Made by a program: the position numbers and the translations under genes. Shown here piece after piece: positions 18,554 to 58,509 of a stretch of 64,000 nt of DNA. Location: positions 11,681 to 75,680 of IMG/VR virus record IMGVR_UViG_3300028883_000047, one strand, 5' to 3'. The DNA is from a virus. Its lineage: Duplodnaviria > Heunggongvirae > Uroviricota > Caudoviricetes. The notes beneath the pieces are model-generated. The model had not been told where the DNA came from. It saw only the letters and a program-made list of their open reading frames with translations, and made no database searches. The first letter of the stretch is position 1. The number at the start of each line of letters is the position of its first letter.

Positions 18554-19036
18554 TTACCATTCCACGTACTCCATCGTTTGCAACACTCTTCGAATCTCTG
18601 TCAACCTATCACAGAACTCTCGTTTCGTCAAGATTGTTTCCCTGGGGTCGGAGTGACCAATCGTATGGTCGAGTTTTCGTAATCCAGTTGCAAGAAGAGC
18701 TTGCTTCGCCCCGTTCTCTGCTTGGAACATAAGAACGTAAGCTCTCCACGTGAGTTCCCCATAGTCTTCTCCATGACGGTCATAGGCCACCCCTCTCCAG
18801 TAGAGGGTTTGGGTGGTTCGCCAGTCGGGTGCTTGTCGTCCATAGTTTCTTGCCTCATGTCCAGTAAGTGTACAACAGTACTTTTGTTTTTCCAAGTCCT
18901 CATACTTTAAGGACTGAAGGAACCCTTCCATCGAAGCACATTCAATACCGTCAATGAAAAAACGGCGCGCTGTTAAGTTAGACAGCGCGCCGTTCTCGGT
19001 TCCGTACCGAATGTTGATCATCTGATGTGGCTCCAT
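18554..19036 (-). CDS. NADAR-domain protein (YbiA-like NAD/ADP-ribose processing N-glycosidase)
   Basis: NLTARRFFIDGIECASMEGFLQSLKY and overall ~160 aa match NADAR/DUF1768 pattern. Confidence 0.55.
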   Translation of the reverse strand: MEPHQMINIRYGTENGALSNLTARRFFIDGIECASMEGFLQSLKYEDLEKQKYCCTLTGHEARNYGRQAPDWRTTQTLYWRGVAYDRHGEDYGELTWRAYVLMFQAENGAKQALLATGLRKLDHTIGHSDPRETILTKREFCDRLTEIRRVLQTMEYVEW

Positions 19037-25648: not shown

Positions 25649-25707
25649 ATTGTATCACCTCTATGCCCACGTCCTACACCTGACGGAATTGTCAGCAGTG
25701 GCGTGGG

Positions 25708-39580: not shown

Positions 39581-39606
39581 AAAAGGGGGCCGAAGCCCCC
39601 TTTTAT
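39581..39606 (-). terminator. terminator hairpin GGGGGCCGAAGCCCCC + T-run
   Basis: Same 16-nt hairpin sequence recurs at 50171-50186. Confidence 0.5.
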
Positions 39607-40751
39607 TACACCACCTCCTTTATTTTTTCAAGGCGTGTTTGGTCTATTGCGAGCCCTATCTGCTCGCCCTTGAGAACGGCTTGTTGCTCGACAGTTAGGG
39701 TTGCAAAAGACACTTTCCTCGCTTCCCTAAACGCCGTTAGTAGGGCATCCATCCCTGACTCAATCCTACTATCAAAACTAGCAAACCCCAACGCTGAACT
39801 CAATTCAACCATATCATCCGGACGTCTGAATGCATCAAGCATGTGGAGTGCTTTCAGTACCTTCTCTGGATCATGTTGTTCAGCAGCACGATCTTTCAAG
39901 TAACGCAGCAACCTGTTAAACTTCGTTGCCAGCCGCTGGATATCGTTAGGTGCTTTCAACCGAACATAGAACTCATCTGCTTTATCCAGATCGACCAATG
40001 ACGTCAGTAGCATGTACCGAACAAACATATCAGCGTTACGCAACGCTGCACGAGACAATCCATATCCAGAGTGAATCAACGACCGACCGAGTTCCGGAAA
40101 CAATACGTCCTTCGCGCCGCATGCCTCCAAAGTCCAGAAGAACTTGGTTGGTTGTTCAGCCGTTAGTGCACCCTCAAGCTCTTTCCATACCCGTTCTTCG
40201 GTTAGGTGATCAAGCTCACCTGATTTAACCAACGAACGCATCAGGTCCATCGTCTCAGGAGCGACGCTAAAATTGTACCTAGCAGCGAATCGAGCAACAC
40301 GTAGAACACGGACTGGATCTTCAGCAAACGCATCTGACACGTGCCGAAGAACTCCATTACGAAGGTCCTCAACACCACCATAAGGATCGATGATTTCATC
40401 AGACAGCTTTGCGAAACCAGCCTCGTTCCAACTCAGAACTTCGCGCGCCATGGCATTGCACGTCAGGTCACGACGGAGCAGATCTTCTTCGATCGTGATC
40501 TCCGGATCGCTGTACACTTCGAAACCGTGATAGCCTTCACCAGTCTTCTTTTCAGTCCGAGCAAGAGCGTATTCGTCACGTGTCTTTGGATGATGAAAAA
40601 CAGGGAACGCTTGAGCTTCGATAGGAATATACCCCAGCGTTTTCATGTCTACCGCGGTAGCGCCGGTCACGACGAAATCATGATCTTTAGCTTCACGACC
40701 AAGAACTCTATCGCGCACATAGCCGCCAACAATGTAAAACTTGATTGTCAC
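39606..40751 (-). CDS. cca: tRNA nucleotidyltransferase (CCA-adding enzyme)
   Basis: MTIKFYIVGGYVRDRVLGREAKDHDFVVTGAT: GG(x)VRD + DxD head-domain motifs; 381 aa. Confidence 0.75.
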   Translation of the reverse strand: MTIKFYIVGGYVRDRVLGREAKDHDFVVTGATAVDMKTLGYIPIEAQAFPVFHHPKTRDEYALARTEKKTGEGYHGFEVYSDPEITIEEDLLRRDLTCNAMAREVLSWNEAGFAKLSDEIIDPYGGVEDLRNGVLRHVSDAFAEDPVRVLRVARFAARYNFSVAPETMDLMRSLVKSGELDHLTEERVWKELEGALTAEQPTKFFWTLEACGAKDVLFPELGRSLIHSGYGLSRAALRNADMFVRYMLLTSLVDLDKADEFYVRLKAPNDIQRLATKFNRLLRYLKDRAAEQHDPEKVLKALHMLDAFRRPDDMVELSSALGFASFDSRIESGMDALLTAFREARKVSFATLTVEQQAVLKGEQIGLAIDQTRLEKIKEVV

Positions 40752-41938: not shown

Positions 41939-42280
41939 TTACCAATAGCGGGCAATCATAGATTCCATGCGTTCAACGCCAACGGGGTTCGCGCTGTGAA
42001 CGTAAACCTCTTTAGGAACGGGGCCGAGTTCATTTACTTTGCGGTCAATCATCCACATAAGAATATCGTAGCCGGTCAGCTCTTTATTGCCGACAAACGA
42101 CGCCAGGTCATGATCAAGTGAAACGACTTCGAATTCGATTAATTCGAGTTTGAGAAGAGCTTCCCACGCGCTGCGAGCAGAACACCACTCCGGGCCATAG
42201 CTGACAGGAATAGGTCGAACATCGTCAACCCACAACGAAGTAAAACCGCTCATTGAACAATCTCCCAATATATCCATCAA
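41939..42280 (-). CDS. hypothetical protein (113 aa)
   Basis: ORF. Confidence 0.4.
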   Translation of the reverse strand: MMDILGDCSMSGFTSLWVDDVRPIPVSYGPEWCSARSAWEALLKLELIEFEVVSLDHDLASFVGNKELTGYDILMWMIDRKVNELGPVPKEVYVHSANPVGVERMESMIARYW

Positions 42281-43735: not shown

Positions 43736-44605
43736 TTACAAGAACTGAGTGATTTCTCGTGGAAGTTTCATCTTTCCGACAACTGACTTGGCGCGTTCCG
43801 CTGCTTTTTTGAATATTTTTTCCTGATCAGCACTATCAAACCGCCGGTGAATCAAGCGTATCACGCTTTCAGCGTCTTCAACCTCGCAGGGATCTGTCGG
43901 ACAGCCGAACATTAGTGCCAGTGCTGTGCGAGGATCGTTGATGACAATATCATCATCAATAACATCACGCGTTAAGGGGAACTTTTCTTTAATATCGTTT
44001 AGTGTGGAAGTCTTCAGGGTTTTGAGGTACCCAGATCCATCCTTGCGTTCGGGACGATATTGGTAAATTCGACGCAATCCTTTGTTTAAGTCAAACGTTC
44101 GGCCAATACGAACAGTCAGAATTGGATTATTTCGATCTACCCAGTTGTATCCAAAATAATCAACTCCCTCTTGGTTCACTTGTGCAGCCACCCCCATTAA
44201 CAACATCGTACGGACAGCACCTTTGTAGTCACTATCAGAAGCTGCTGGTGACCAATAAGCAAAATTAGCCCATTCGATATTATCAGTGAACATCAGGTCC
44301 ACTTGAACAGCTTGGCCGTCAATGTCAATAGCATACGATTGAACACCCAATCCTGGCATATCTTTAAATTCTAGGATATATGGACCAGCAAAGGACATAC
44401 TCTCCTTCACCATGTCAGGATGGTATGTGTTCAAATCTACCGCAAGATCAATATCATTAGACCATGGAGCTTTCCCCGTAGACCCCAGTGGATGCAAATC
44501 CACAACAGGAACGGAAGAAAAGTGAGAAACCGTTTCGATTACATTTGGAATTTTTGATATTGATACAGGAGTTGTTCCTGCTTCTTTTGTTGCGTAGCCG
44601 CCCAT
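43736..44605 (-). CDS. Pol-beta-superfamily nucleotidyltransferase-like protein
   Basis: PLGSTGKAPWSNDIDLAV: G[SG] followed by DxD in beta-strand context; 289 aa. Confidence 0.4.
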   Translation of the reverse strand: MGGYATKEAGTTPVSISKIPNVIETVSHFSSVPVVDLHPLGSTGKAPWSNDIDLAVDLNTYHPDMVKESMSFAGPYILEFKDMPGLGVQSYAIDIDGQAVQVDLMFTDNIEWANFAYWSPAASDSDYKGAVRTMLLMGVAAQVNQEGVDYFGYNWVDRNNPILTVRIGRTFDLNKGLRRIYQYRPERKDGSGYLKTLKTSTLNDIKEKFPLTRDVIDDDIVINDPRTALALMFGCPTDPCEVEDAESVIRLIHRRFDSADQEKIFKKAAERAKSVVGKMKLPREITQFL

Positions 44606-45221: not shown

Positions 45222-45677
45222 TCAGGGCCATTCACATACGTATGTATTAACCCTAGACCACTTGCTGTCCGCAAACTTAATAATCGGCTCGACTTCTTTT
45301 TCCCAGTCAAGCCCACCCAGTCCTGCACCAATTTTGGGGATGTATAGTGGAAGGTGGTACATATCTGCCCACGCATATGCATCCCACAAAGACAATTCAA
45401 TAGCCTTAGGATCAGCGAATCGACCGTTTTTTCCGTAAAACACCTGCGTGTAGCAATTAGCAACGAATAGTTCATCTCCCATTCCGACGTTGATGACGTG
45501 GCAGGAACTTAACATTGCTTTACCTTTCGGTGCGTTCATGTAACGGTCGTAGACGATTGGCCACTTCTCTTTAATGGCTTTAGCCACGCCAGAACCCATT
45601 GCATGTTGACAGTTAACACCATGAGCTATTACGCCCATGGTCACTGTAGTAATATCTTTGTGGACGTATTCAATCAT
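45222..45677 (-). CDS. macro domain protein (ADP-ribose binding/processing)
   Basis: VTMGVIAHGVNCQHAMGSGVAKAI matches macro-domain N-terminal glycine-rich signature. Confidence 0.7.
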   Translation of the reverse strand: MIEYVHKDITTVTMGVIAHGVNCQHAMGSGVAKAIKEKWPIVYDRYMNAPKGKAMLSSCHVINVGMGDELFVANCYTQVFYGKNGRFADPKAIELSLWDAYAWADMYHLPLYIPKIGAGLGGLDWEKEVEPIIKFADSKWSRVNTYVCEWP

Positions 45678-45973
45678 TATCCGATACCGTACTTTTCGTA
45701 ACCCATCTCAGCAAGAAGCTCGAATGCAGCCTCGGTAGTATCCTGATCGATAGGCTTAGCTGATGCAACGCTATACAGGAAGTTGAGCATTTTTTCGTGT
45801 TCACGAGCAATCGGGTGGTAATGGCTCATGTCAATGGTCAGAGCCTTTTCGCGCGTAACATAACCAGAAATGATTTCAGGATGAGTCCAGCCGTTGATGC
45901 CAACCATCTCCCATCCCTGTTTAATTAACTGATGATCAATCTCATCTTTTGGCTCACGTATGTAGCGAGGCAC
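45677..45973 (-). CDS. hypothetical protein (98 aa)
   Basis: ORF. Confidence 0.4.
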   Translation of the reverse strand: MPRYIREPKDEIDHQLIKQGWEMVGINGWTHPEIISGYVTREKALTIDMSHYHPIAREHEKMLNFLYSVASAKPIDQDTTEAAFELLAEMGYEKYGIG

Positions 45974-46233
45974 TATTCTTTCTCCTGTTCCTTTCTTAAT
46001 TGTTCAAAGTATTCGCGCTCTTCGTCAGATATTACGCGCTCAATTTCTTGCCAACTCCCCGCTTGACACATATCGCAACCGGGGTAATGTCCTTGATGAT
46101 GACTACATATACTGTACCACATAAACATCTTCCCGTCCTTTAGAAGCACCGGCTCGAGAAAATAGTTATAGCTATTGAGCAGGTACTCCGAAGGCAGACC
46201 ATCAGACATTATGTTGGGCGTACTATCAGTCAT
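45973..46233 (-). CDS. hypothetical protein (86 aa)
   Basis: ORF. Confidence 0.4.
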   Translation of the reverse strand: MTDSTPNIMSDGLPSEYLLNSYNYFLEPVLLKDGKMFMWYSICSHHQGHYPGCDMCQAGSWQEIERVISDEEREYFEQLRKEQEKE

Positions 46234-46597
46234 TCTGCAGCTGTTCTAGAATCTCGCCAGGAACTTCGAGGTTCACAGCTCCTACCACTTCTGGCTCAGT
46301 ACGGAAGCGGGTAACATCACCATTCTCAAATCGCTTTTGATCTTCATATGGTGCTGCGACAATCCGATAGTACTCTTTACTTATAGCATCAAGAACGCCC
46401 AGTGCGTCATTGATCTGTGTATAACGAGTTGAATCACGATCACCATACACCATCATCAGCAAACGGGTAACTGCGTAGTTAATGTTACCTTCCATATTGT
46501 TCTGATCATCATCAATCTCCATATCGACGAGTGTTTGATGCAGCTGCTCGATTGCGGGATCGAGCACGTCCCTTTTGTCTTGTTTAATGTACGGCAT
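46226..46597 (-). CDS. hypothetical protein (123 aa)
   Basis: ORF. Confidence 0.4.
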   Translation of the reverse strand: MPYIKQDKRDVLDPAIEQLHQTLVDMEIDDDQNNMEGNINYAVTRLLMMVYGDRDSTRYTQINDALGVLDAISKEYYRIVAAPYEDQKRFENGDVTRFRTEPEVVGAVNLEVPGEILEQLQND

Positions 46598-46651
46598 GTT
46601 TACCTCTTAAATTGCGTTTATGTGCTATAAATTACCTACTGACCGAAGCCC

Positions 46652-47377
46652 TTACTCGTCTTTCATTTCTTCCAACGCTTGAGCTTCAAGATATTCGATG
46701 AAAAATTCATAACGGTCTTTCATGTCTTCGTGTACTTCCTTGACTATCCTAACACTGTCTTTACTATACAAGGGCGAAACTTTAGAAACGAAATGGTGTT
46801 TGTCTTTCTTGAATGGTTCACCACTCAGCGAACACAAATAGTACTCGCCACCATGATGATTACCGTAGATGTCGCGTTTCAGGATTCCTTCTGGAAGCCT
46901 GTCCATGTACTCCATGCAATCATCGAAGTTAGTAAAGATTTTCGTAGATAATGCATGCAACCAACCGGGAACTTCTTTCTGCCAATTCTCCCATGCCGAT
47001 ACTACAAACACAGGAATATCATACAGAAAGGCAAATTGTGCTTCAGATATTGTTCCAGCTCCCCGTCGGACGCTTTCGTCATAGTACAATATAACAGCGT
47101 CTGTATCATTTTTAAGCAGTTCGAGGTCAGTGAAGACAAAGTGTTTACGGATGTTTGCTTTGCGTAGGAGCTCGTCGTCCTCACCAAAGTCCATGTATAG
47201 CTTTCCGTGTTCGGAAGCATACGCTTTGTCGAGAGCGGTAATATCGAGAGGGAAGTAACCCAACTCCCGCAATGCATCTGCAATCACGAGCCGCCATTCG
47301 CCACCTAAATCGATAGCATGTTCCATTCCCCCCGAGAGGTAAATGTTACCCCTTGGATACTTTGGATGCTTGATCAT
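46652..47377 (-). CDS. nucleoside 2-deoxyribosyltransferase-like (NDT/DNPH1-fold) protein
   Basis: NIYLSGGM near N-terminus and RRGAGTISEAQFAFLYDIPVFVV resembling the NDT catalytic Glu motif. Confidence 0.45.
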   Translation of the reverse strand: MIKHPKYPRGNIYLSGGMEHAIDLGGEWRLVIADALRELGYFPLDITALDKAYASEHGKLYMDFGEDDELLRKANIRKHFVFTDLELLKNDTDAVILYYDESVRRGAGTISEAQFAFLYDIPVFVVSAWENWQKEVPGWLHALSTKIFTNFDDCMEYMDRLPEGILKRDIYGNHHGGEYYLCSLSGEPFKKDKHHFVSKVSPLYSKDSVRIVKEVHEDMKDRYEFFIEYLEAQALEEMKDE

Positions 47378-47592
47378 GCCTTTTCTGGTTCCTTGTACTT
47401 AACCATCGCTTGAACGAAGATTTTGTTGTTTGTTGCTGGAATAACGTACTCCATGATTTCGCCGTTGAGAACGTAGCCTTCTTTAATGAGCTCGTTTACA
47501 CCTATTTCAACGTCAAGAGGTGACCCCTTGATAATACGAAATACTGCTGGTCTTGCCTTGTATCTTGTTTCGGTCCACTTCCATTCACTCAT
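47374..47592 (-). CDS. hypothetical protein (72 aa)
   Basis: ORF. Confidence 0.35.
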   Translation of the reverse strand: MSEWKWTETRYKARPAVFRIIKGSPLDVEIGVNELIKEGYVLNGEIMEYVIPATNNKIFVQAMVKYKEPEKA

Positions 47593-48184
47593 CTTCTATT
47601 ACCCTCTCATGCACGTGAATCAATAATCTTTCTTTACTGTCACTATTAGCTACATTAAACACAGGAATACCATTCCGGTCTGCCAACGCTATCGCTTGGC
47701 CAGTACCGCCAGTCATTCTGGTGCGGTCTGCTTCTCTTTCGCAGCCATCTGGAGTCCAGCATACAACAAAGTCCACGGGATCATCAAGGGTCTGACCTAG
47801 CACCTGATAACAATTCCGTGCCATTAACTTCTTAGCACCCTGACTGAGATATTGCCACCGATCGCCATACACTTCTTCCGCTAATGATAATGCTTCAGGT
47901 GTAATCACATGGAAGGGAGAAGGATGATCATTAAACCCCTTCCAGGGAACAAAGATTTCCTTTCTCCCCTCCACAACATCACACCCTCTTTCAAAAGCAG
48001 TGTCAGCACCTTCAGCAGCACCACTACGCAGCACAAACTTGAAATGGATGCCACACAAAACTTGACCAAGGGCGGTCATCCACTCCAGCACTTCCTTTGG
48101 AGCTTTTCGAGAGCCTATACCAGCATATGAAATCATGCGGTCCACTGAAGCATTCCACGTAACTGGTAGTTGAAGGCATGCCAA
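47585..48184 (-). CDS. SLOG-superfamily (DprA/LOG-like Rossmann) protein
   Basis: YAGIGSRKAP..RSGAAEGADTAFERG resembles DprA/Smf/YspA SLOG core. Confidence 0.45.
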   Translation of the reverse strand: MACLQLPVTWNASVDRMISYAGIGSRKAPKEVLEWMTALGQVLCGIHFKFVLRSGAAEGADTAFERGCDVVEGRKEIFVPWKGFNDHPSPFHVITPEALSLAEEVYGDRWQYLSQGAKKLMARNCYQVLGQTLDDPVDFVVCWTPDGCEREADRTRMTGGTGQAIALADRNGIPVFNVANSDSKERLLIHVHERVIEDE

Positions 48185-48251
48185 TAATAAGGCAAGTGTT
48201 CAATGATGCTAAAGAAAGCAGCAATCTCTACAGGACAAATATGAAAATGCA

Positions 48252-49568
48252 TTAGTTCTCCAAATTAGTCAACTTGCCATACTTTTTGTTTTTGACCCAA
48301 TGACGGAACATTTCGATATACGCTTTTACATTATCATATGATGAAAGACGTCTATCCAGAGCTCGGTAACCAGAATCGATATCGTCAGCGAACTCTTCTG
48401 CGGCAACGTCAATCACTTGTGGATGCCACAGAGCTGTCCAGAAAATACGATCATACTGTTCTTGATCGACGAAAGCAAGAGTACGCTTCAGAGTTATCAT
48501 GTCCATCAAATCTTCGTATGCATCTCGGTCGAAACGGTCCACGCTTTCATCGACTGCTTGTTCAAGCAGCTCCATCATGCGTTCTTCCGTTCCCCTTGTC
48601 ACATCGCAACCGAACACCGCGTATGGTTTATATGCCATTTGGTCATCGTACAACCACAGACTATAAGTTAACCCATTCTTTTCACGAATGAGATCGGTCA
48701 TTGATATTGGAGATAAACTAGACAAGTATCGATTACCTACACGAGCAGCCACCACATTAATGTCACCCATCGTATCGAAAAGCAGAGCGGTCATGACCTG
48801 CTCGGACGGATTATCGATTGTGGTATCTAGCATCGTCGGTTCGGAGATGTAATCACGATACGCCTTTCCGATGTGGTTACACAACTCAGTGCTATCTGGC
48901 GCAGGGAATCGACTGAGCTCCGCGTCTACCGTTGCTGTAATTTCTTCTTTAGTTAAAACAGTCGGGTCGTATGTGATGTTGAACACCATATCACCCTGTG
49001 TCAGAAAGATAGCTTTGATCATCTGAGCGTCTTCCAGGGTGGTAGCGTCGACGGACTCTGGCGTACCAAGAATATTGTCATGTTCAGTATCGTATCCGCA
49101 GAATGCAGGCATCACACTGAAATGGAACATTGTTTGATCATCGTCATTATACCGCTTTACTTCATTGTATACGGTTTTCTTTTCCGTTTGAAATTCTTCG
49201 TCTGTTAACAGAGATAGGTCATTCAGGCCGTAGTTGAGCACTAATCGAATAGCTGTCCGCATCCGCGATGATGTAGTCTTAAACCAGTAGTTGATACGCT
49301 CGTGATCCGTGGACGCGTTGTATGTTCCTTCTTTCTTTAGAGCTTGCATCAGCTCATCGGTAGTGTAGTCTTTACAACACCTGAAACCGAGGTGTTCTAC
49401 AAGATGAGATAGTCCGAATACGTTTCGCCCGGTGATATCGTATACCGCACGCTCGACATGCGCGCCCATTTTGTTAATGATTTCAAATTTGAAGAGGTTT
49501 GATCCTGGCAGGGTGAGAAATTGATATTGCCGACCGTCGATGGTTTCACGGGTGAAGGTTTTATTCAT
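48252..49568 (-). CDS. M16 (pitrilysin/insulinase)-family metallopeptidase-like protein
   Basis: GLSHLVEHLGF inverted zinc motif HxxEH; 438 aa. Confidence 0.5.
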   Translation of the reverse strand: MNKTFTRETIDGRQYQFLTLPGSNLFKFEIINKMGAHVERAVYDITGRNVFGLSHLVEHLGFRCCKDYTTDELMQALKKEGTYNASTDHERINYWFKTTSSRMRTAIRLVLNYGLNDLSLLTDEEFQTEKKTVYNEVKRYNDDDQTMFHFSVMPAFCGYDTEHDNILGTPESVDATTLEDAQMIKAIFLTQGDMVFNITYDPTVLTKEEITATVDAELSRFPAPDSTELCNHIGKAYRDYISEPTMLDTTIDNPSEQVMTALLFDTMGDINVVAARVGNRYLSSLSPISMTDLIREKNGLTYSLWLYDDQMAYKPYAVFGCDVTRGTEERMMELLEQAVDESVDRFDRDAYEDLMDMITLKRTLAFVDQEQYDRIFWTALWHPQVIDVAAEEFADDIDSGYRALDRRLSSYDNVKAYIEMFRHWVKNKKYGKLTNLEN

Positions 49569-49613
49569 TATCGCTCCTTATGATAGTTATAGAGCGTATG
49601 ATACACAATTTTT

Positions 49614-49964
49614 CTATAGTAGAGAAGGGTTATCAATATCCGTGATATATACAATTCTCTTTTTCAATGACCGTGCAATTTCTATTTCATCTTGAACACC
49701 AACGGAATCTTCCCACCCCTCAATGCACAAAACATGAACCACCTCACACATTTCCATGCCACGAACGCAAAGATCCTTCCAAAATTCATAATCGGTTGGA
49801 AGTGGGTGATCTTTAAGTATTGGATGAATATACGCAAGAACAGAGAACGCAAGAATGTCGTTTGAGGCAAGTTGCGCAACATAACGCTGCGCAACTTTCA
49901 CCCGTTCTTCTATTACGTTCTGGTCAGGATCGCTGTAGGGCGAACTTACAAAAACGTCAAGCAT
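49614..49964 (-). CDS. DUF1937/NDT-fold small protein
   Basis: MLDVFVSSPYSDPD N-terminus typical of DUF1937. Confidence 0.35.
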   Translation of the reverse strand: MLDVFVSSPYSDPDQNVIEERVKVAQRYVAQLASNDILAFSVLAYIHPILKDHPLPTDYEFWKDLCVRGMEMCEVVHVLCIEGWEDSVGVQDEIEIARSLKKRIVYITDIDNPSLL

Positions 49965-50164
49965 AATTAATACCCAGTAGCAATGAACACAAATTGGTCA
50001 TATTAGTTTCCGTACAAAATAGTTGTCTGTTCAGACTGTTCCCGAATTTCTGAGAAACTCCATTCTTTAACGATTTTTCCGTTTTCAAATACAGTTTCCA
50101 ACAGGCCTCCAGGCTGTCCTTCTGGAGATTAATAAAGCGTACTCGATTTCAAGAAGAGAGAAAA

Positions 50165-50190
50165 GGGTGAGGGGGCCGAAGCCCCCTCTT
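50165..50190 (-). terminator. terminator hairpin GGGGGCCGAAGCCCCC (second copy)
   Basis: Immediately downstream of nadV stop; T-rich flank. Confidence 0.5.
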
Positions 50191-50194
50191 TTCG

Positions 50195-51622
50195 TTACCA
50201 GTTGGTGGTTTCTTCTACTCGAGCTCGAACTTCACTGAAAGTCCAATCTACTAACTGTTCTCCATCTTTCCAAACAGTCTGCAGAAGTCCATTATCTTGT
50301 CCTTCAGGGCCAGTATAGTACTCACCATCATCACCGCGGTACAGGTCCAGCCGACCCTTTTTACTACGCTTCCCGGAATCAGTGACAGGATCTTTGAATA
50401 CATCAACATCTTTGCCATTGATCTCAGCCCAACTTGCTTTCATCGCGAACTTCAACGTATCGCGGTTAACTTGCTGCAGCAGAGCCCCGCCCTGACCGAA
50501 TACCGCATTGTCGGCACTGAAACCATAACCACGCAGCGCTGCCAGAATATCACGAATGCTATCAGTGGTAATTCCATCACCCTGCAGTATGCGAACATTG
50601 TTCAGCACTTTGTACCCTTTACTATTCACGGTACTGCCAAACGTTGCGTCGAGTAGCATTGCTACCTTGCAAACCACTTCAGCCGGATCGCCACTATCGG
50701 GGCGAACAACAAGCGTAGAACCAGAATTAATCACTTGGGCCTTCAGCTCTTTGCCCCAATATTCTTCAACCGCATTGAAGATGTCGTAGCTGTCAGACAC
50801 CACCGCAACGATAGGGTACTTACCTGCGAACTGTTCTAACATATTCTTGTATGCGTCCAGTTCACCGTCTTTGGTCCAGGTGGTAATTGAGCTGTGTTCT
50901 GCTGCAGGCACGGAGAATGCAGTCACGTCACTTTCGTTGTAGTACTTCATGCTGTACAGCATACCGGTAATGGTATCAGTTCCCATGAAATTAACCAGGT
51001 GAGCGGCGCCACCGATGCCTGCGCTTTCTTTTGAGCTTACGCCGCGCGCGCCGAAATCATGCAGTTTGAACATCAGGCCAGCCATTGCTTCTTCATCTGC
51101 AGTTTCTTTCAGGTACTGGCGAATAACCTGTTTGCTTGACCAGCTATTGGTAGCAACAGTTACCGGATACCAGATTGCCCGCAAAATTGACGTCTCGATG
51201 TATGAGGTCAGCCAAAACGCTTCGGGATCGGTGTTAATAACCTGAACCATTACGTTTCGAGTTCCGACAACGGTGCCTTCAGGCAACGCTCTGATTTCAA
51301 GGGGCAACCAGCCATTGTAAGCAGTCAGGATGTATTCCCAACCTTCGCGGTTGAATGGTTCGCCGTGCAACTGGAACATCAGTTCAGCAGCATTGATTTC
51401 TTCCTGGGTGATTGGTTTGCTCAGATACTTCTTGATCCACATCTGCAGCCCGAAGAAAACAGTACGGTCGTATTTGCCACCACGGCTTTCGATGTAAGAA
51501 GAAACTCGCTTGGTTCCTGGTGGGTATTGCAACCAGTGAGATGCTTTATAACTGTCTACGTCAGCAATGATGCTGTCCAGCAGAGTGTCGATTTGATTGG
51601 TGTTGAGTGCTTGTGCGTTCAT
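50195..51622 (-). CDS. nadV: nicotinamide phosphoribosyltransferase (NAMPT/NadV)
   Basis: 475 aa NAMPT-length protein with characteristic composition; GGAGGATTTCCA SD; late promoter upstream. Confidence 0.75.
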   Translation of the reverse strand: MNAQALNTNQIDTLLDSIIADVDSYKASHWLQYPPGTKRVSSYIESRGGKYDRTVFFGLQMWIKKYLSKPITQEEINAAELMFQLHGEPFNREGWEYILTAYNGWLPLEIRALPEGTVVGTRNVMVQVINTDPEAFWLTSYIETSILRAIWYPVTVATNSWSSKQVIRQYLKETADEEAMAGLMFKLHDFGARGVSSKESAGIGGAAHLVNFMGTDTITGMLYSMKYYNESDVTAFSVPAAEHSSITTWTKDGELDAYKNMLEQFAGKYPIVAVVSDSYDIFNAVEEYWGKELKAQVINSGSTLVVRPDSGDPAEVVCKVAMLLDATFGSTVNSKGYKVLNNVRILQGDGITTDSIRDILAALRGYGFSADNAVFGQGGALLQQVNRDTLKFAMKASWAEINGKDVDVFKDPVTDSGKRSKKGRLDLYRGDDGEYYTGPEGQDNGLLQTVWKDGEQLVDWTFSEVRARVEETTNW

Positions 51623-51979: not shown

Positions 51980-52930
51980 TTATACTCTAGCAATCGTTGC
52001 GAACCGCTCTCCAGTCTGCCAATGTTTGCCATCAGCCGCCGGCCGAGCATGAACAGTCATGCGGTATCGTCCCGGTTCGACGTTGAGTGATACCTCGATC
52101 CAATCCTCAAGTGTTTTGTCATCGATTTCTTGCTCAGCACCACGGTTCTTGAGATACTCATAATCCGCTGCACTGAACCACCACAGATCGGTGCAAATAG
52201 AGCCCCGATCATCCCCAAGATCCAACACAGGGTTATCATCATCGTCGTACCCTGGGTTGCCTACTGTAATGATGTCAAACATGTCCACATACACGCCAGG
52301 ACATGAGTTGCCTACGAACGCGTGAAGCATGTTCGATTCGGCATAGTCTTGTACGGTTTTCTTGATTTCGCTGCTGTAGTTGACGTATCGGTCTTTGTCC
52401 GCTTCCGGAACGAACGGGCGAAAATCATTGGCGAATACCAATCGACCACTCGGAACATCAATCTCAACTGTGTAGTCTTTGATACCACCTGACTCGGAAC
52501 AAGCGGGAGTATCTTCTACGTACACATGCTGTTTGTTGTGTGGTTTTAACTCGAACAGTTCACCAGTCCACCAAATGTCTACACGTTCACCACACTCACC
52601 ACACGTCTCGGTTCGTATCAGGGTGGGCAACTGAACTTCCTCACCATCCCGATGCCCGTAGAAAAAGAGAGACATGGGATCCAATAGCTTATCGTATATC
52701 CAGCTCCATGGCCGATCATAATCCAATGTCGTATCGGGTAATGCAACAGGGCCTTCTTTCTGAGAGAAATGTCCGTTGAAATCTACGAGAAGTTCTCCAT
52801 TACGGAGCTGGTGTTTCATAGTATCCAGCACTGACGGGTTCGGCGGTAGTTCGTTGTTCGCCCATGCAACCTTTTCCTCTTCCAGGCGCTTCTCATACTC
52901 CCGTTTGAACTTATCCATATCAAAGTCCAT
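51980..52930 (-). CDS. hypothetical protein (~316 aa)
   Basis: ORF; start moved to internal Met (MDFDMDKF) to limit overlap. Confidence 0.4.
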   Translation of the reverse strand: MDFDMDKFKREYEKRLEEEKVAWANNELPPNPSVLDTMKHQLRNGELLVDFNGHFSQKEGPVALPDTTLDYDRPWSWIYDKLLDPMSLFFYGHRDGEEVQLPTLIRTETCGECGERVDIWWTGELFELKPHNKQHVYVEDTPACSESGGIKDYTVEIDVPSGRLVFANDFRPFVPEADKDRYVNYSSEIKKTVQDYAESNMLHAFVGNSCPGVYVDMFDIITVGNPGYDDDDNPVLDLGDDRGSICTDLWWFSAADYEYLKNRGAEQEIDDKTLEDWIEVSLNVEPGRYRMTVHARPAADGKHWQTGERFATIARV

Positions 52931-53474
52931 GCTCTTTCTCCAAGAATACCAAAAGCTCCTCAACCAATAGAGGGCCGGTGTAAAAAGTATCATAGTCATA
53001 CCCACCAGCGTCTAACGTGGCGGTAATCATATTATCAATTTCTGTAGCCTCGTCCAAAGACCTTTCACGGCCCCATTCCTGATATTCTTCTGGACGGTTT
53101 AAAACGATGTTTATATTGTCGTACGTCTGGAATTGTTTATGGACGAGCTTGGTGAACTCAGGCAGTGCAGGCCATGGCCGTGTTCCGTGTTGCTTTTGGT
53201 TCATCTGAGGATATATTGCAGACAATAGAATTGGACTATCGATGATTGCCCAATCAACATGCTCAATCAGACGCTGCAACCGCCAGTTCTGTTCAGCGAA
53301 GATGTACTCCTGCTGTTCCAACATCGTGCCAAGCTGACCAGCATAAACAAGGTCCTTTGCATATTCGGTTGCAAGTTCGACTTTGCAGCCCATTAGCTTC
53401 ATTCTGTAGAACAAACCAGCGGCAGTTGTGCTTTTGCCCGAACCTGGTCCACCGAAGAGGTTGATTACTTTCAT
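52920..53474 (-). CDS. P-loop nucleotide/nucleoside kinase-like protein (PNK-kinase or NR-kinase-like)
   Basis: VINLFGGPGSGKST Walker A close to T4 Pnk (GCPGSGKST) and NadR-NRK P-loops. Confidence 0.45.
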   Translation of the reverse strand: MKVINLFGGPGSGKSTTAAGLFYRMKLMGCKVELATEYAKDLVYAGQLGTMLEQQEYIFAEQNWRLQRLIEHVDWAIIDSPILLSAIYPQMNQKQHGTRPWPALPEFTKLVHKQFQTYDNINIVLNRPEEYQEWGRERSLDEATEIDNMITATLDAGGYDYDTFYTGPLLVEELLVFLEKEHGL

Positions 53475-54059: not shown

Positions 54060-55100
54060 TTACAATTTTCCAATCATGTCGTTGATAATGTGAAAGTGAT
54101 CTTCAAATAGCTGATCTTCCATACTCTTGAAGGTACTCAAAGGAACCCAGCGAGCTTTATCAGCATCATCGCTTCCCTTAACTTTTGGCAACGGGCCAGG
54201 AGGTAGTTCAATCAGAAATGCATGAGTGATTGTTCTACCACGAAGGGATCGTGAAGGATGATCATACACGTCTTGTGCCTTGATCGATCCACTCAGAACC
54301 GGTCCAGGAACCTTAATCTTGGTTTCTTCACGCAACTCTCGAACGACTGCTTGTCTGATCCTTTCAGCCGGATCCAGGAAGCCTCCAGGAAGCGCCCACA
54401 AGCCACGACCAGGTTCAGCACGACGACGAACAAGAAGAATATGACCAGACTGAATAACCACAGCATCAACTGTGACAAATGTAGGAGCATATGGAGCACC
54501 CTCCCATGCTTGTTTGTATGTGTTGATGAAGGTGTACTCACGAGTGAGTTGTTCGAACTCAGGGGTTAGAGTGAACGCCTTCAGGTAATCGTGGATCGCT
54601 GTAGGGAGTTTACGGCCAACCTGGAAGTCAAAATCATCATCTTCCATGGTAAACAGAGCTTCACGAACGTCAGATGCATGTATGTCTTCAATGTTGCCGA
54701 CATCGATCAGATCCCACTGAGGAAACATCGACAGGTAGTAAGAACTTTCATCCTTTGAGTGACCGATGATACCAACCTTAGCATCGATACCTGCCAGTGC
54801 AATGACAGTGTCTTGTACCTGCTGAGCCCATTGCTGGTCATTATACAGGATATCGCGAAGAGGAGCGACCATAACGCGATCACGTACGGTCTGAGGTAGC
54901 GAGGTTCGGATCATATCGCCTCGCTCCTGCCACGTCCAGGGGTTTTTGATTGTTCGTGGTTGCATTGCAGACCCAGCAAGAACGATCAGGTGTTCAGCCT
55001 GCTTGAGAGCCTGCTTCATCAACTCAATATGCGCGAGGTGTGGGGGCTGGAAGCGCCCGATGTAAACTATGTAATCATATTTCATTTGGAATTCCTCCAA
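54060..55100 (-). CDS. natV: bifunctional NMN adenylyltransferase / Nudix ADP-ribose pyrophosphatase (NatV-like)
   Basis: IGRFQPPHLAHIELM (NadM-type NMNAT motif) and GGFLDPAERIRQAVVRELREETKI Nudix box. Confidence 0.8.
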   Translation of the reverse strand: MEEFQMKYDYIVYIGRFQPPHLAHIELMKQALKQAEHLIVLAGSAMQPRTIKNPWTWQERGDMIRTSLPQTVRDRVMVAPLRDILYNDQQWAQQVQDTVIALAGIDAKVGIIGHSKDESSYYLSMFPQWDLIDVGNIEDIHASDVREALFTMEDDDFDFQVGRKLPTAIHDYLKAFTLTPEFEQLTREYTFINTYKQAWEGAPYAPTFVTVDAVVIQSGHILLVRRRAEPGRGLWALPGGFLDPAERIRQAVVRELREETKIKVPGPVLSGSIKAQDVYDHPSRSLRGRTITHAFLIELPPGPLPKVKGSDDADKARWVPLSTFKSMEDQLFEDHFHIINDMIGKL

Positions 55101-55142: not shown

Positions 55143-55661
55143 TTAGTTTTTGGGTTTAAAATCAACATGCCTGCGCAGACTTTCTACGCGTGCGAGATCA
55201 CCCTTTCCCCCCAATCCTAGAATGTCAATCATCTCGATGGTTTCTTTTAGGGTCAAACCGTACACGCCATTGGTTTGAACCAGCGGTTGGTCACCGTAGA
55301 AATCGCTATCATCATCCACGATGACATACCTGTCTACTTGACGCGTTTCCAACCACTCATTAATTTCATCACCTCTCCCAATCGAACCGATACGAGCGCT
55401 TCGTGGAGTTACACCTTCAATTGGTGGTTGAAACCATCCGAAAGATGAAAAGAATCCATCGAACCAAGCTGGATCGCGGCCTATTCTCCACGTGGATGAT
55501 ATCACAATCCTAGCATCCGTCTGGTCACATATAAACCGCAATAGACCCACCTTGACGGGGTCTGCGTCATCTAACCGAACAGATCGATTAATCGTGTTTG
55601 CTCCTACTGCATATTCAACGGAATTGAGCACACCATCAATATCGAGGAATAGTATCTTCAT
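55143..55661 (-). CDS. HAD-superfamily phosphatase (PNK-phosphatase-like)
   Basis: MKILFLDIDGVLNS: DxDG(T/V) HAD motif I. Confidence 0.55.
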   Translation of the reverse strand: MKILFLDIDGVLNSVEYAVGANTINRSVRLDDADPVKVGLLRFICDQTDARIVISSTWRIGRDPAWFDGFFSSFGWFQPPIEGVTPRSARIGSIGRGDEINEWLETRQVDRYVIVDDDSDFYGDQPLVQTNGVYGLTLKETIEMIDILGLGGKGDLARVESLRRHVDFKPKN

Positions 55662-56468: not shown

Positions 56469-56653
56469 TAATCAAAGCTCGATTGTAAGTCATCTACAGC
56501 AAACGATAATCGGTCAGCCCATTTCTCAAGCCCGTCAGCGATGCGCTCATTACACACACTCTCGCTCATTGACGTAAGAGTGTCATTACGAAGCGATTTA
56601 GCTTCATCACGCATCTCATCTGCAATCATTTCAATTACACTATAATTGTCCAT
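56468..56653 (-). CDS. hypothetical protein (61 aa)
   Basis: ORF. Confidence 0.3.
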   Translation of the reverse strand: MDNYSVIEMIADEMRDEAKSLRNDTLTSMSESVCNERIADGLEKWADRLSFAVDDLQSSFD

Positions 56654-57503
56654 TTCTGTAATTCCACCCTAACTTCTCACGAAGGACCTCAAAGTAGTTC
56701 CAGTCATCATTGCGCCAGATATCAACGAACCGGTGTTTGGTGATCTCAACATTCATCTTATGAGTTGAGTACACATAGTTGTTATCTGACAGCAAGCATA
56801 TGTCCTTGACTCGATCAGTAGCATTTGCTTCAATCCGAACCACATCATTTTCACTAACAACAACAGGACGAGAAGAAATAGTATGAGCAGCCAAAGGAAC
56901 GATTTGCATTGCACGAGATGTTGGAGCCATGATAGCACCACCAGCGCTCATTGCGTATGCAGTTGATCCGGTAGCAGTCGTTACGATCACACCATCACCA
57001 GCTTGTCGAGCTACATGCGAGTCGTTGACGAACACATCATACGTCATCTGGTTCTTTCGTGTCTTCGTGGTGACTAAGAACTCGTTAACAGCCACAGAGT
57101 CTATTTTCCTGTAGTCGTTTGGCTGCGTGGTCGATGAGCTGATCAACATTCGACTGTCGCGCTTCCATGGCTTCTCGCCGTTTAGTAGTGACAGCAGTAG
57201 TGTTTCAAAACTTGCATGATCGACACTACCATTCGTTAAGAAACCTAAATGACCGAAGTTAAACCCAATGACGGTACCGAACGGCGTACTTGCAGCAGCT
57301 TTCATTGCAGCCAACATAGTTCCATCCCCGCCAAGGGCGATGAATAACGGTGATCTGTCATCAATTAGGTGCCGGTCATCATATGAAAGAACCCGGCCGC
57401 CCTCACGATCGACCACTCTCCTGATTGTATCGATCATATGGAGAGTGGATGGATCATCTTTAGTATCCAGTTTCGGAACGTACACGACATTGTTAAAAAT
57501 CAT
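56640..57503 (-). CDS. nadK: NAD+ kinase
   Basis: FIALGGDGTMLAAMK (GGDGT) and NFGHLGFL motifs. Confidence 0.8.
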   Translation of the reverse strand: MIFNNVVYVPKLDTKDDPSTLHMIDTIRRVVDREGGRVLSYDDRHLIDDRSPLFIALGGDGTMLAAMKAAASTPFGTVIGFNFGHLGFLTNGSVDHASFETLLLSLLNGEKPWKRDSRMLISSSTTQPNDYRKIDSVAVNEFLVTTKTRKNQMTYDVFVNDSHVARQAGDGVIVTTATGSTAYAMSAGGAIMAPTSRAMQIVPLAAHTISSRPVVVSENDVVRIEANATDRVKDICLLSDNNYVYSTHKMNVEITKHRFVDIWRNDDWNYFEVLREKLGWNYRNGQL

Positions 57504-58426
57504 CAGAGTTCGACCTTTCCGGTTTTCTGGAAGTTAAGCATACGCTCAATAGGCTTGCGGGCCATTCGCATTTGCGTTTCATTTAAGTAATCAATTTTCG
57601 TGCCAAGACCGGCAGAAGCCTGCAGAACTTTTTTAACAGAGTTCAGCTTCATATACGGACACTGATTACACTGACAACCAGAGTAGATAGGCGCTTGACG
57701 GATGTCTAGTTCTGGTCGTTCTTCGCGCATATTATACAGAAGACCGTCTTCGGTTGCAACAAAAACGGTTGCAACACTACCTTTGAATTCTCTGATCCAG
57801 TTGAGCATTCCATGAGTTGACCCAACATAGTCGGCCATCTTGAGAATGGGTAACGGGCTCTCTGGGTGAGCAAGAACGAACTTAGGTCCATCTGTCCATC
57901 CACGCATAGCAGCTTTCAGTTCATCTTCTTTGAACTTATCATGAACCTCGCATACCGCTTCCCACACAGGCATATTGTACCCATACGTGTAGTTTAAGTA
58001 TTCACCCATGTTGCGGTCAGGGGAAAATATTACTTTCTTACCCTGATCGTAGATGTCCTTGATCACATCATCGACGATGCGAGAAGTAACAATGATGTCA
58101 GACATCGCCTTGTGGATTGCAGATGAGTTTATGTACGAAACATGAACGTGGTCGGAGTACTGTTGCCTCCATTTACGAAGTCTGCTGATGTTTGTTTGTT
58201 CAACAAGAGAGCAAGTCGACCCACCATCAGGTAGTATCACTTCTGCTTCGGGGTTAAGGATCTTTGCAGTTTCAGCCATAAAACGAACACCGGCGAAGAC
58301 TATTCGCTTGGGTTTGTGCTCGACAGCTTTCTGTGCAAGGTCTAATGAGTCACCAACGTAGTCAGCCATTTGCTGAACGTCAGGCGTTGTGTAGTAGTGT
58401 GCGAGTATGAGTGTATCTTTGCTCAT
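57503..58426 (-). CDS. nadA: quinolinate synthase A (NadA) homolog
   Basis: LILAHYYTTPDVQQMADYVGDSL, VRFMAETAKIL, HPESP, CxxC near C-terminus parallel E. coli NadA; start at MSKDT with GGAGGATTTCCAG SD. Confidence 0.75.
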   Translation of the reverse strand: MSKDTLILAHYYTTPDVQQMADYVGDSLDLAQKAVEHKPKRIVFAGVRFMAETAKILNPEAEVILPDGGSTCSLVEQTNISRLRKWRQQYSDHVHVSYINSSAIHKAMSDIIVTSRIVDDVIKDIYDQGKKVIFSPDRNMGEYLNYTYGYNMPVWEAVCEVHDKFKEDELKAAMRGWTDGPKFVLAHPESPLPILKMADYVGSTHGMLNWIREFKGSVATVFVATEDGLLYNMREERPELDIRQAPIYSGCQCNQCPYMKLNSVKKVLQASAGLGTKIDYLNETQMRMARKPIERMLNFQKTGKVEL

Positions 58427-58509
58427 CTGGAAATCCTCCAAACGTTTATGGTGCACGGTGGGTCTATCCCACTGGCTTACTATTAGTATATATGGCTACA
58501 CGCTACCCG

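Follow-up and report, generated by a model that had tools for sequence, protein, structure and literature searches.

Rebuilding of NAD+ by the phage is a known means of overcoming host defence. The NARP2 pathway of KVP40 (NadV-NatV) overcomes NAD+-depleting defences experimentally (10.1101/2024.02.11.579819), and NARP3 combines a PnuC-like transporter with a NadR-like enzyme (PMC13464706). Passages of a survey of jumbo-phage neighbourhoods (Iyer et al. 2022, PMC9503650) describe Macro, NADAR, SLOG, Nudix, and DUF4326 genes, sometimes beside NadV/NadM, and the viral DrHyd/NDT superfamily members reported in those passages are of the ARC type only. In addition, the T4 gp30.3/AdfN family, which belongs to the NADAR superfamily, strips DarT1 ADP-ribose marks off DNA (PMC11825919).

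Here, we analysed a 64,000-nucleotide stretch (the window) of IMG/VR record IMGVR_UViG_3300028883_000047, whose source genome is an uncultured huge phage and kin of Ralstonia phage RsoM2USA. A preliminary description had singled out a co-directional island at 45222-51622; an ORF check found all of the minus-strand ORFs named there, and profile searches confirmed their families (Table 1). The list was correct in what it named but left out DUF6899, three small ORFs, and the continuation of the NAD block to about 58.5 kb; the interval makes up only the downstream half of a ~13 kb block (45.2-58.5 kb). Co-directionality, though true, is uninformative: the minus strand of the window carries all 21 tRNAs and almost every long ORF. 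The clustering goes beyond chance, and relatives at only 40-65% protein identity show it in the same order. Loci with NAD genes come mostly from a single collinear phage lineage, and their synteny is thus not independent evidence of functional coupling.

Table 1. Features of the NAD block and the distant NADAR gene, by window position (L numbers denote loci compared with the window)
Feature	Position	Strand	Evidence or context
gp30.3/AdfN-family NADAR	18554..19036	(-)	Pfam Phage_30_3 2.3e-43
Macro domain protein, 151 aa	45222..45677	(-)	DarG/TARG1 class; Pfam, PADLOC, PDB
Hypothetical protein, 98 aa	45677..45973	(-)	homologues in L026, L114; 1-base overlap with each neighbour
Hypothetical protein, 86 aa	45973..46233	(-)	homologues in L113, L114; 8-base overlap with DUF6899
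DUF6899 protein, 123 aa	46226..46597	(-)	constant downstream partner of NDT-fold gene
NDT-fold (DrHyd superfamily) protein, 241 aa	46652..47377	(-)	fold; YLSGG and GAGTISE motifs
Small protein, 72 aa	47374..47592	(-)	weakly DUF1737-like
SLOG/DprA-like protein, 183 aa from ATG	47585..48136	(-)	phrog_768; open frame to 48184
M16 (pitrilysin-type) metallopeptidase, 438 aa	48252..49568	(-)	Pfam 2e-12; HLVEH motif
DUF1937, small NDT-fold protein, 116 aa	49614..49964	(-)	family match; elsewhere only L113
Non-coding relic, C-terminal end of second NAMPT gene	50006..50128	(-)	NAMPT-DUF1937 spacer
GC-rich hairpin, 8 pairs, 7 GC	50169..50188	(-)	directly 3' of NAMPT stop codon
NAMPT (NadV)	50195..51622	(-)	NF006629; Pfam NAMPT_N, NAPRTase; phrog_448
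AAA_28 P-loop protein, 184 aa	52920..53474	(-)	synteny: between NadM and NAMPT in relatives
Bifunctional NadM-Nudix	54060..55100	(-)	NF003786; Pfam CTP_transf_like, NUDIX
HAD_SAK_2 phosphatase-like protein	55143..55661	(-)	conserved in L113
NAD kinase	56640..57503	(-)	Pfam; homologues near NDT-fold gene in 6/18 loci
Quinolinate synthase NadA	57503..58456	(-)	Pfam NadA 3.3e-85; also in L060, L082

NAMPT (475 aa from its ATG) scores 638 bits against NCBIfam NF006629 (cut-off 405), and the NadM-Nudix protein scores 461.8 bits against NF003786 (cut-off 397). The latter is, from its domain content, a predicted NMN adenylyltransferase plus ADP-ribose pyrophosphatase, the second NARP2 enzyme, and its gene stands 2.4 kb upstream of NAMPT with five ORFs between, one of them AAA_28. 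With this pair, the NAD+ regeneration proposed in the preliminary description is better supported than had been claimed. The AAA_28 protein found no relative in a PDB search; AAA_28 is the Pfam family to which the kinase domain of NadR belongs. Downstream, the relic aligns with the stop-to-stop NAMPT frame at residues 444-478 (51% identity, E 9e-7); this frame starts five codons before the ATG, and the match thus corresponds to approximately residues 439-473 of the 475-aa protein. The hairpin is likely a transcript end or stabiliser, and together with the 230-bp spacer it would argue against a single operon for NAMPT and the genes downstream.

The macro domain protein clears the cut-off of the Pfam Macro model (3e-5), falls far below that of the NCBIfam DarG model (1.6e-10), and matches PADLOC DarG at 6.6e-14, while its best PDB match is 5m3i (M. 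tuberculosis DarG macrodomain, 9e-8). Among 18 well-flanked loci, 8 have the macro gene on the downstream side of DUF6899. The SLOG protein matches phrog_768 (DprA-like) at 1e-51 and Pfam DprA at only 0.033; some of its 3538 homologues carry PF02481, PF18306, or a fused PF14216 (DUF4326), and the gene is present in 10 of the 18 well-flanked loci. The gene previously called NADAR was borne out as such by its match to Phage_30_3, a family in the NADAR superfamily (PMC11825919); it stands 26 kb away from the NAD block, and a PF08719 NADAR occupies the corresponding place beside NAD block genes in relatives. The proposed removal of ADP-ribose marks is supported for this gp30.3-like gene, by its place in the AdfN family, but less so for the macro domain, in which Gln replaces the catalytic Lys80 of DarG, as it does in 6/6 phage homologues.

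The NDT-fold protein ends in a zinc-ribbon-like hairpin (three of its four Cys are Ser in the window copy) followed by helices and has no Pfam match at E <=0.1. It is found in phage or metagenome sequences only, and a motif search across the genomes of 185,579 bacterial and archaeal species returned no relatives. DUF6899, whose N-terminal MPYI is invariant and whose three-helix bundle is not an enzyme-like fold, follows within 2 kb downstream in 47 of the 50 non-redundant loci that could be tested (median gap to the NDT-fold gene 22 bp). In eight loci (L009, L011, L014, L016, L017, L020, L021, and L022) the pair occurs with no other likeness to the window within 10 kb, judged against minus-strand window ORFs of >=60 aa, and its neighbours there include DHFR, exonuclease, and gp32-like SSB genes. 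The 72-aa ORF shares 4 bases with the NDT-fold gene and 8 with SLOG, and in L003, L027, and L113 its homologue or a DUF1737 match directly precedes the NDT-fold gene, whereas in L026 it is ~1 kb upstream; the 98-aa and 86-aa hypothetical proteins gave no match in family searches. With its occurrence in such varied contexts, the pair looks like a separate phage-only two-gene module. Distant NDT-fold relatives carry additional dNMP-kinase-like, HAD-phosphatase, DeoC, or HD domains in fusion, which points to nucleotide-pool chemistry rather than ADP-ribose signalling; these relatives match at E 1e-13 to 1e-22 across the NDT domain alone, and their substrate may differ. The NDT-fold protein may nevertheless work in NAD or ADP-ribose chemistry, since an NDT-like gene lies within 10 kb of an NAD or ADP-ribose gene in 13 of the 18 well-flanked loci, often right after NADAR.

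The M16 peptidase, whose HxxEH motif had been correctly read in the translation, is rare among cultured phages and occupies this position in just two other loci, L113 (84% identity) and L049 (47%). It was probably inserted and kept in one subclade, and DUF1937 is kept only in the closest relative. The closest relative contig retains the whole gene order, and the window's exact order, DUF1937 and M16 included, is found in L113 and L114; on the folds and on this joint retention of the full set, the preliminary description stands. Wider relatives retain NAMPT, NADAR, SLOG, NDT-like, DUF6899, and macro genes. For example, L003 reads NadM, AAA_28, NAMPT, NADAR, SLOG, small ORF, NDT-like, DUF6899, macro, and the same set is rearranged, gapped, or broken by unrelated insertions in L004, L008, L015, L025, L026, L030, L031, L049, L055, L066, L082, and L104.

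Taken as a whole, the locus is probably best explained, in our view with moderate confidence, as an NAD+-centred block joined by an ADP-ribose set and a separate NDT-fold/DUF6899 module. By family membership, NAMPT would convert nicotinamide and PRPP to NMN, and NadM-Nudix would convert NMN to NAD+ and could also cleave ADP-ribose; the two would form a NARP2 pathway that NAD kinase and NadA extend. The block may maintain NAD+ supply during infection, which would help the phage withstand NAD+-depleting host defences and would feed its own NAD-dependent DNA ligase, while macro, SLOG, and the relatives' PF08719 NADAR would be the ADP-ribose-derivative processing set that survey passages describe from jumbo phages. 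The NDT-fold/DUF6899 pair would be a mobile module lying in the NAD block by happenstance, in which the NDT-fold protein would most probably be an N-glycosidase or transglycosylase with a nucleotide or nucleoside substrate and DUF6899 its small helical partner.

The preliminary description had instead read all genes of the interval as one integrated counter-defence toolkit, in which NAMPT restores NAD+, macro and NADAR remove DarT-type ADP-ribose marks, and the NDT-fold, SLOG, and DUF1937 proteins break down nucleotide immune signals. The nearest relative does retain the entire set in order, NADAR, SLOG, NDT-like, and macro genes adjoin in many relatives, AdfN-family NADARs counter DarTG1 (PMC11825919), NDT-like retron effectors hydrolyse NAD(P)+, and viral Macro, NADAR, and SLOG are proposed as ADP-ribose signal degraders in parts of the survey (PMC9503650). 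We nonetheless regard such integration as unlikely: at least eight loci with unrelated flanks have the NDT-like/DUF6899 pair without any of the window's NAD or ADP-ribose genes within 10 kb, the fusions of distant NDT-fold relatives indicate deoxynucleotide metabolism, Lys80 is absent from the macro domain, M16 and DUF1937 are narrowly kept (in only three and two loci, window counted) and showed no tie to NAD, and the NDT-like, SLOG, M16, and DUF1937 proteins have no PADLOC or other defence-related match. It is possible, if rather doubtful, that the block mainly feeds NAD(P)+ to the phage's own NAD-dependent enzymes during a long infection and does not serve counter-defence. Consistent with this, a gene for an NAD-dependent DNA ligase lies in the window (7551-9506), NadA and NAD kinase are biosynthetic and not salvage-after-attack enzymes, the latent period of RsoM2USA is given as 270 min in a passage of PMC8504454, and NARP2 makes excess NAD+ even when no defence system is present, yet NARP2 also defeats NAD+-depleting systems (both 10.1101/2024.02.11.579819). 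Moreover, it is hard to see what macro, SLOG, and the AdfN-like NADAR would contribute to simple supply, and the supply and counter-defence readings are compatible, not mutually exclusive.

It seems quite improbable that the macro, HAD_SAK_2, cREC, and SNase proteins serve tRNA repair together with an RNA ligase and a CCA-adding-type enzyme, cleaning up ADP-ribose by-products and RNA ends while the NAD supply feeds the pathway. The repair genes sit outside the interval, KptA/Tpt1 was not found among the part of the ORFs scanned, and Rnl1-type ligation is not known to leave a 2'-phosphate, which counts against this reading. In its favour are the 21 tRNA genes, a T4 Rnl1-type RNA ligase, a metallophosphatase, the HAD_SAK_2 protein, and an SNase in the window, a PolyA_pol-family nucleotidyltransferase at 39606-40751, a cREC_REC protein as the relatives' homologue of the 41939-42280 ORF, the phosphatase label of the macro protein's PHROG (phrog_335), and the tie of Macro and NADAR to RNA repair in survey passages (PMC9503650). 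We consider it very unlikely that the NDT-fold protein acts as a toxic N-glycosidase (for example, an NADase or nucleotide hydrolase) kept in check by DUF6899 as inhibitor or regulator in a toxin-antitoxin-like or exclusion module. Strict adjacency in varied contexts, a small helical partner, homing endonucleases that often adjoin or are fused to the NDT-fold gene, and retron NDT-like effectors, i.e., toxic NAD(P)+ hydrolases restrained by a partner, would fit. However, there is no PADLOC match, toxin-antitoxin modules usually reach cellular genomes, in which the motif search came up empty, and 75% identity of the NDT-fold protein where NAMPT has only 42% fits a metabolic enzyme.

Compared with known systems, the claim that the combination is not a described one is only partly right, since NARP2 and, in survey passages, jumbo-phage Macro/NADAR/SLOG/Nudix genes with NadV/NadM are published. 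The AAA_28 protein recalls NARP3 by lying within an NAD block, but no adenylyltransferase domain is fused to it, a PnuC was not detected, and it is a putative kinase at most. The macro protein resembles the macrodomain of the DarTG2 antitoxin DarG (PDB 5m3i, 5m31) by its best PDB and PADLOC matches and differs in Lys80 and in lacking both the C-terminal DarT-binding domain and a DarT neighbour. The gene at 18554-19036 is a putative counterpart of AdfN (T4 gp30.3), an orphan NADAR that undoes the ADP-ribosylation of DNA by DarT1 (PMC11825919). As in KVP40, a NAMPT-clade phosphoribosyltransferase and a putative bifunctional NadM-Nudix occur in one phage, but here the two genes are non-adjacent and the block adds NAD kinase, NadA, and an HAD phosphatase. 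As in the jumbo-phage neighbourhoods of the survey passages (PMC9503650), a standalone macro and SLOG lie beside NadV and NadM, a PF08719 NADAR stands there in relatives, and DUF4326 fusions occur among the SLOG homologues; the survey passages searched make no mention of the NDT-fold/DUF6899 pair, M16, or DUF1937. Unlike nucleoside 2'-deoxyribosyltransferase, DNPH1 (Rcl), and MilB, the NDT-fold protein adds a long helix and its zinc-ribbon-like C-terminal extension and keeps a constant DUF6899 partner, and it is this pairing, a widespread uncharacterised phage-only module, that is new here.

The window derives from an uncultured huge phage of the lineage of the Ralstonia jumbo phage RsoM2USA (343.8 kb), its nearest cultured relative, in which tblastn found NAMPT at 59% and the 241-aa NDT-fold ORF at 52% identity. 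By megablast, the interval from the macro gene to NAMPT had no close relative among GenBank phages, and homologous contigs from public metagenomes reached 340-380 kb. ORF translation of the window recovered every ORF named in the preliminary description, which had joined the macro, NDT-fold, SLOG, M16, DUF1937, NAMPT and NADAR genes into a single counter-defence toolkit (Table). GC content is even across the interval (0.43-0.48), and its genes are indeed co-directional, yet this is uninformative because nearly all long ORFs of the window lie on the minus strand. Elsewhere in the window, which holds 21 tRNA genes, a NAD-dependent DNA ligase, a T4 Rnl1-type RNA ligase and a metallophosphatase make up a phage-encoded NAD+ consumer and tRNA-repair set, and a separate run of genes (two sulfotransferases, several methyltransferases, a capsule-synthesis-like protein and an MptE-like protein), within which GC is lower (0.41, at 20-24 kb), has the appearance of a cluster for modifying glycans or small molecules, of a kind unusual in phage.

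Table. Positions and supporting matches of window features (an empty cell means that no value is reported)
Feature	Position	Strand	Match or remark
NAD-dependent DNA ligase	7551-9506	-	
T4 Rnl1-type RNA ligase	12297-13439	-	
Metallophosphatase	14021-14752	-	
gp30.3/AdfN-family NADAR	18554-19036	-	Pfam Phage_30_3, 2e-43, 147.8 bits vs cut-off 36
Sulfotransferase/methyltransferase gene run	19067-26328	-	
289-aa ORF	43736-44605	-	GS...DxD motif
Macro, 151 aa	45222-45677	-	Pfam Macro 3e-5; PADLOC DarG 6.6e-14; PDB 5m3i 9e-8
DUF6899, 123 aa	46226-46597	-	
NDT-fold protein, 241 aa	46652-47377	-	
SLOG / DprA-like	47585-48184 (likely start ATG at 48136)	-	phrog_768 1.2e-51
M16 peptidase	48252-49568	-	HLVEH (HxxEH zinc motif); Pfam Peptidase_M16 2e-12, 47.5 bits vs cut-off 22.3
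DUF1937	49614-49964	-	Pfam 9e-17; PDB 1t1j 2e-7
NAMPT relic, 41 codons	50006-50128	-	E 9e-7 vs resident NAMPT
Strong GC hairpin	50169-50188		
NAMPT (NadV)	50195-51622	-	NF006629, 638 bits vs cut-off 405; Pfam NAMPT_N + NAPRTase
AAA_28 P-loop protein	52920-53474	-	generic Pfam match
NadM-Nudix, NMN adenylyltransferase / ADP-ribose pyrophosphatase	54060-55100	-	NF003786, 461.8 bits vs cut-off 397
HAD_SAK_2 phosphatase	55143-55661	-	
NAD kinase	56640-57503	-	
Quinolinate synthase NadA	57503-58456	-	Pfam 3e-85
Adenylosuccinate-synthetase-like gene	58510-59733	-	Pfam 2e-41

Depleting NAD+ is among the commonest ways in which bacteria resist phages, and the phage pathways that reconstitute it are a recent discovery. 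The NAD block of this phage extends upstream past the interval first noted, adding AAA_28, NadM-Nudix, HAD_SAK_2, NAD kinase and NadA, and the window holds both components of NARP2, an NAMPT-clade phosphoribosyltransferase and NadM-Nudix, each above its curated cut-off. Judged from these family assignments, the earlier claim that the phage would regenerate NAD+ is well founded, since the two enzymes would together constitute a pathway of published mechanism, the NadV/NatV route of phage KVP40, which overcomes NAD+-depleting defences (10.1101/2024.02.11.579819). Among about 50 window ORFs scanned, none matched a PRPP-synthetase-like protein (Adps, the NARP1 partner). The AAA_28 protein was considered as a NadR-type ribosylnicotinamide kinase, an assignment that is unproven, the Pfam match being generic and no PDB relative being found. 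NadA recurs in two of the metagenomic relative loci (L060 and L082), and no NadB or NadC was detected near it; de novo NAD synthesis genes are uncommonly carried by phages. Adjoining NadA is a divergent adenylosuccinate-synthetase-like gene, whose best PDB matches are bacterial PurA (2e-19); L012 and L013 have homologues of it close to the NDT-like gene. We set aside its assignment as PurZ (2-aminoadenine genome), no PurZ-named chain being among the PDB matches listed at E 1e-5 or better.

The GC hairpin lies directly 3' of the NAMPT stop codon and is followed by a 230-bp spacer, which suggests that NAMPT is transcribed separately from the genes downstream. The spacer retains a remnant of a further NAMPT gene, namely its C-terminal end, 51% identical to the resident enzyme at about residues 439-473 of its 475 aa, apparently a scar left by replacement or partial duplication of the gene; taken with the wide spread of NAMPT identity across relatives (42% to 80%), it suggests that the resident NAMPT may itself be a replacement in this lineage. 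The genes running from SLOG to macro are tightly packed, overlapping by 1-8 bases (SLOG/72-aa ORF, 8; 72-aa ORF/NDT-like, 4; DUF6899/86-aa ORF, 8; the next two junctions, 1 and 1), which suggests co-translation. A sigma-70 promoter scan returned 33 sites against 28.2 ± 5.4 in shuffled sequence, i.e., no excess.

Removal of ADP-ribose had also been proposed, and here the candidate proteins differ. It is plausible for the NADAR protein, which belongs to the Phage_30_3 family of T4 gp30.3/AdfN. AdfN is a DNA ADP-ribosylglycohydrolase of the NADAR superfamily and acts against DarTG1, and removal of ADP-ribose from guanine in DNA has been demonstrated for it and for further phage NADARs (PMC11825919). 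For the macro protein it is uncertain. This is a DarG/TARG1-class macrodomain, covering positions 1-140 of the 329 of the PADLOC DarG model and matching the M. tuberculosis DarG macrodomain (PDB 5m3i), but where DarG has its catalytic Lys80, the window protein and five phage homologues have an aligned Gln, the C-terminal DarT-binding domain is absent from its 151 aa, and its neighbours are small hypothetical ORFs in place of an adjacent DarT gene. The substituted Lys and the missing domain keep the protein from being classed as DarG, though it may still bind or hydrolyse some ADP-ribose derivative. Just downstream of macro, in the window and in many relatives (L004, L005, L012, L030, L041, L048, and L049), is an ORF of 289 aa in the window, with no match in Pfam or PADLOC, whose motif resembles that of a Pol-beta-type nucleotidyltransferase. 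The SLOG protein has a weak Pfam DprA match of its own (0.033) and 3538 homologues, some with PF02481, PF18306, or a DUF4326 fusion (PF14216; protein clusters P0195, P0206, and P0221), and NADAR adjoins SLOG in L003 and L015.

Gene order was compared across the relative loci. In the closest relatives, contigs L113 and L114, the NDT-like protein is 86% identical and the window gene order, whose co-conservation had been put forward as a check, is kept exactly: HAD_SAK_2, NAD kinase, NadM-Nudix, AAA_28, NAMPT, DUF1937, M16, SLOG, a GIY-YIG homing endonuclease (other strand), a 72-aa ORF, NDT-like, DUF6899, two small ORFs, and macro. L049 (61% identity) has NAMPT, M16 (47%), SLOG, NDT-like, DUF6899, and macro, and more distant relatives are without M16 and DUF1937, most of them with a PF08719 NADAR between NAMPT and the NDT-like gene. 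L003, for example, runs NadM, AAA_28, NAMPT, NADAR, SLOG, a small ORF, NDT-like, DUF6899, macro, to which L004 adds NAD kinase. At positions 1-3336, a few kb upstream of NadM, L003 also encodes a Cas2-fused Cas3 of type I-F style together with a Cas1-like gene, i.e., a phage-encoded CRISPR-Cas system or remnant. Locally built profiles served to count presence in 112 loci. Of these, 18 non-redundant loci had 8 kb or more of sequence on each side, and one or more NAD or ADP-ribose genes were present in 13 of the 18 (SLOG, 10; NADAR, 10; NAMPT, 8; macro, 8; NAD kinase, 6). This synteny may reflect descent as much as functional linkage, because most of the NAD/ADP-ribose loci form one collinear lineage. 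Membership of the NDT-fold, DUF1937 and M16 genes in a common toolkit found no support. M16 and DUF1937 are absent from the more distant relatives; outside the window, M16 was seen in L113/L114 and L049, and its second domain (Peptidase_M16_C) scores 16.7 bits, below the Pfam cut-off of 23.

The partner that the NDT-fold gene does keep is DUF6899, found 3' of it on the same strand in 47 of the 50 non-redundant loci with enough downstream sequence (median gap 22 bp). At eight loci (L009, L011, L014, L016, L017, L020, L021, and L022) the pair is all that resembles window minus-strand ORFs of 60 aa or more within 10 kb, and its neighbours there, read by eye from translations and not from a family scan, appear to include a capsid-protein-like and SprT-like protease set, MORN-repeat proteins with a TnpB-like protein, TROVE-like, DHFR and exonuclease genes, and PhoH with gp32-like SSB and baseplate genes. 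The NDT-fold family comprises 443 homologues, the best 120 of them at 57-87% identity, and is better conserved than NAMPT. A conserved-motif scan of 185,579 species genomes found no NDT-like relative, and among cultured phages tblastn found the family in RsoM2USA only. DUF6899 is wider still (1102 homologues) and also solitary, as in Roseobacter phage CRP-7, where it follows the DNA polymerase gene; it is a predicted bundle of three helices whose N-terminal MPYI is invariant, and its model had no informative structural neighbour. Full-text literature searches found no mention of DUF6899 and nothing on the function of YtoQ, and no PADLOC model matched the NDT-like, DUF6899, SLOG, M16 or DUF1937 proteins. 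A small gene, DUF6794, absent from the window, lies beside the pair in three loci (L025 11122-11538, L026 8745-9176, and L030 5620-5991) and is fused to a full-length NDT-like member in P0369, and may be a third module component. Some genes of the NDT-like family also have a homing endonuclease beside or inside them, either GIY-YIG or a LAGLIDADG fused in the gene call (L113 8586-9317, L114 12-743, L025 6825-7577, P0404, P0443, and P0473); such neighbours and insertions are typical for conserved phage nucleotide-metabolism genes.

What the NDT-fold protein does is best approached from its motifs and its fusions. It has a Rossmann-like NDT fold, its model matching PDB 1t1j, the entry also matched by DUF1937, and no Pfam match at E 0.1 or better, PF05014 included; more remote members of its subfamily score close to the PF05014 cut-off or under it. 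Y13 (in YLSGG) and E112 (in G108-T-I-S-E112) are invariant in 26 aligned sequences, as are many basic residues, and distant relatives keep (G/A)G(T/S)xxE with an invariant Glu and a strand-1 Tyr in 12 of 13 (V in one); judged by motif, these would correspond to the NDT-type strand-1 Tyr and GxGTxxE nucleophile motif. Most homologues (alignment A1) have a C-terminal CxxC...CxxC hairpin, three of whose four Cys are replaced by Ser in the window subclade (11 of the 26 sequences), where a zinc site seems to have been lost and the remainder conserved. In an exhaustive profile search, full-length clusters numbered about 27 (E 1e-30 or better), and the motifs recurred in over 150 further clusters whose members are shorter (150-180 aa); one relative is fused to a dNMP-kinase-like domain (P0442), another to a HAD phosphatase (P0479), and a third lies inside a 3010-aa polyprotein also with DeoC aldolase and HD domains (P0398).

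Such fusion partners favour (deoxy)nucleotide chemistry like that of DNPH1, and we judge the chances about even that the protein is a nucleotide or nucleoside N-glycosidase or transglycosylase. Its frequent place right after NADAR keeps a NAD- or ADP-ribose-related substrate in consideration, and NDT-like retron effectors hydrolyse NAD(P)+ (PMC12673091); we regard such a substrate as rather unlikely here, and the probability left over falls to some other activity. It is a long shot that NDT-fold and DUF6899 (with DUF6794 where present) form an undescribed phage-only N-glycosidase/transglycosylase system for a NAD-related ribosyl substrate. That system may destroy a cyclic ADP-ribose-type immune signal, or may make nicotinamide riboside from nicotinamide and a nucleoside, in which case the product would feed AAA_28 (if a kinase) and NadM and open a PRPP-independent route to NAD+, in effect a fourth NAD+ reconstitution pathway. 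Were the pair to act on NAD-derived molecules it would represent a new enzyme class in phage counter-defence, and were it to act on deoxynucleotides, a new phage nucleotide-pool enzyme.

Together, these results place the locus next to systems already described. The survey of Iyer et al. 2022 (PMC9503650) reports that Macro, NADAR, SLOG and Nudix occur together and share neighbourhoods in jumbo phages, that NADAR adjoins NadM and NadV in NAD+-making phages, and that these proteins are proposed to degrade small ADP-ribose signals or toxins; the viral SLOG described there and the window SLOG family share DUF4326 fusions and NADAR adjacency. According to the survey, the members of the DrHyd (NDT) superfamily in viruses are of the ARC type only, so the NDT-fold family lies outside it. 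NARP2 accounts for NAMPT and NadM of the window, but is a two-gene system, whereas the set of this clade is fuller (NadA, NAD kinase, NadM-Nudix, NAMPT, AAA_28, and HAD phosphatase). From the earlier interpretation, then, NAD+ rebuilding stands, ADP-ribose removal by the macro protein is uncertain, and the inclusion of NDT-fold, DUF1937 and M16 in one toolkit lacks support. The locus is a richer form of the known phage NAD/ADP-ribose region, in which ADP-ribose-processing genes sit alongside a fuller NAD set in one clade of huge phages, and NDT-fold/DUF6899 is an uncharacterised, widespread, phage-only two-gene module.
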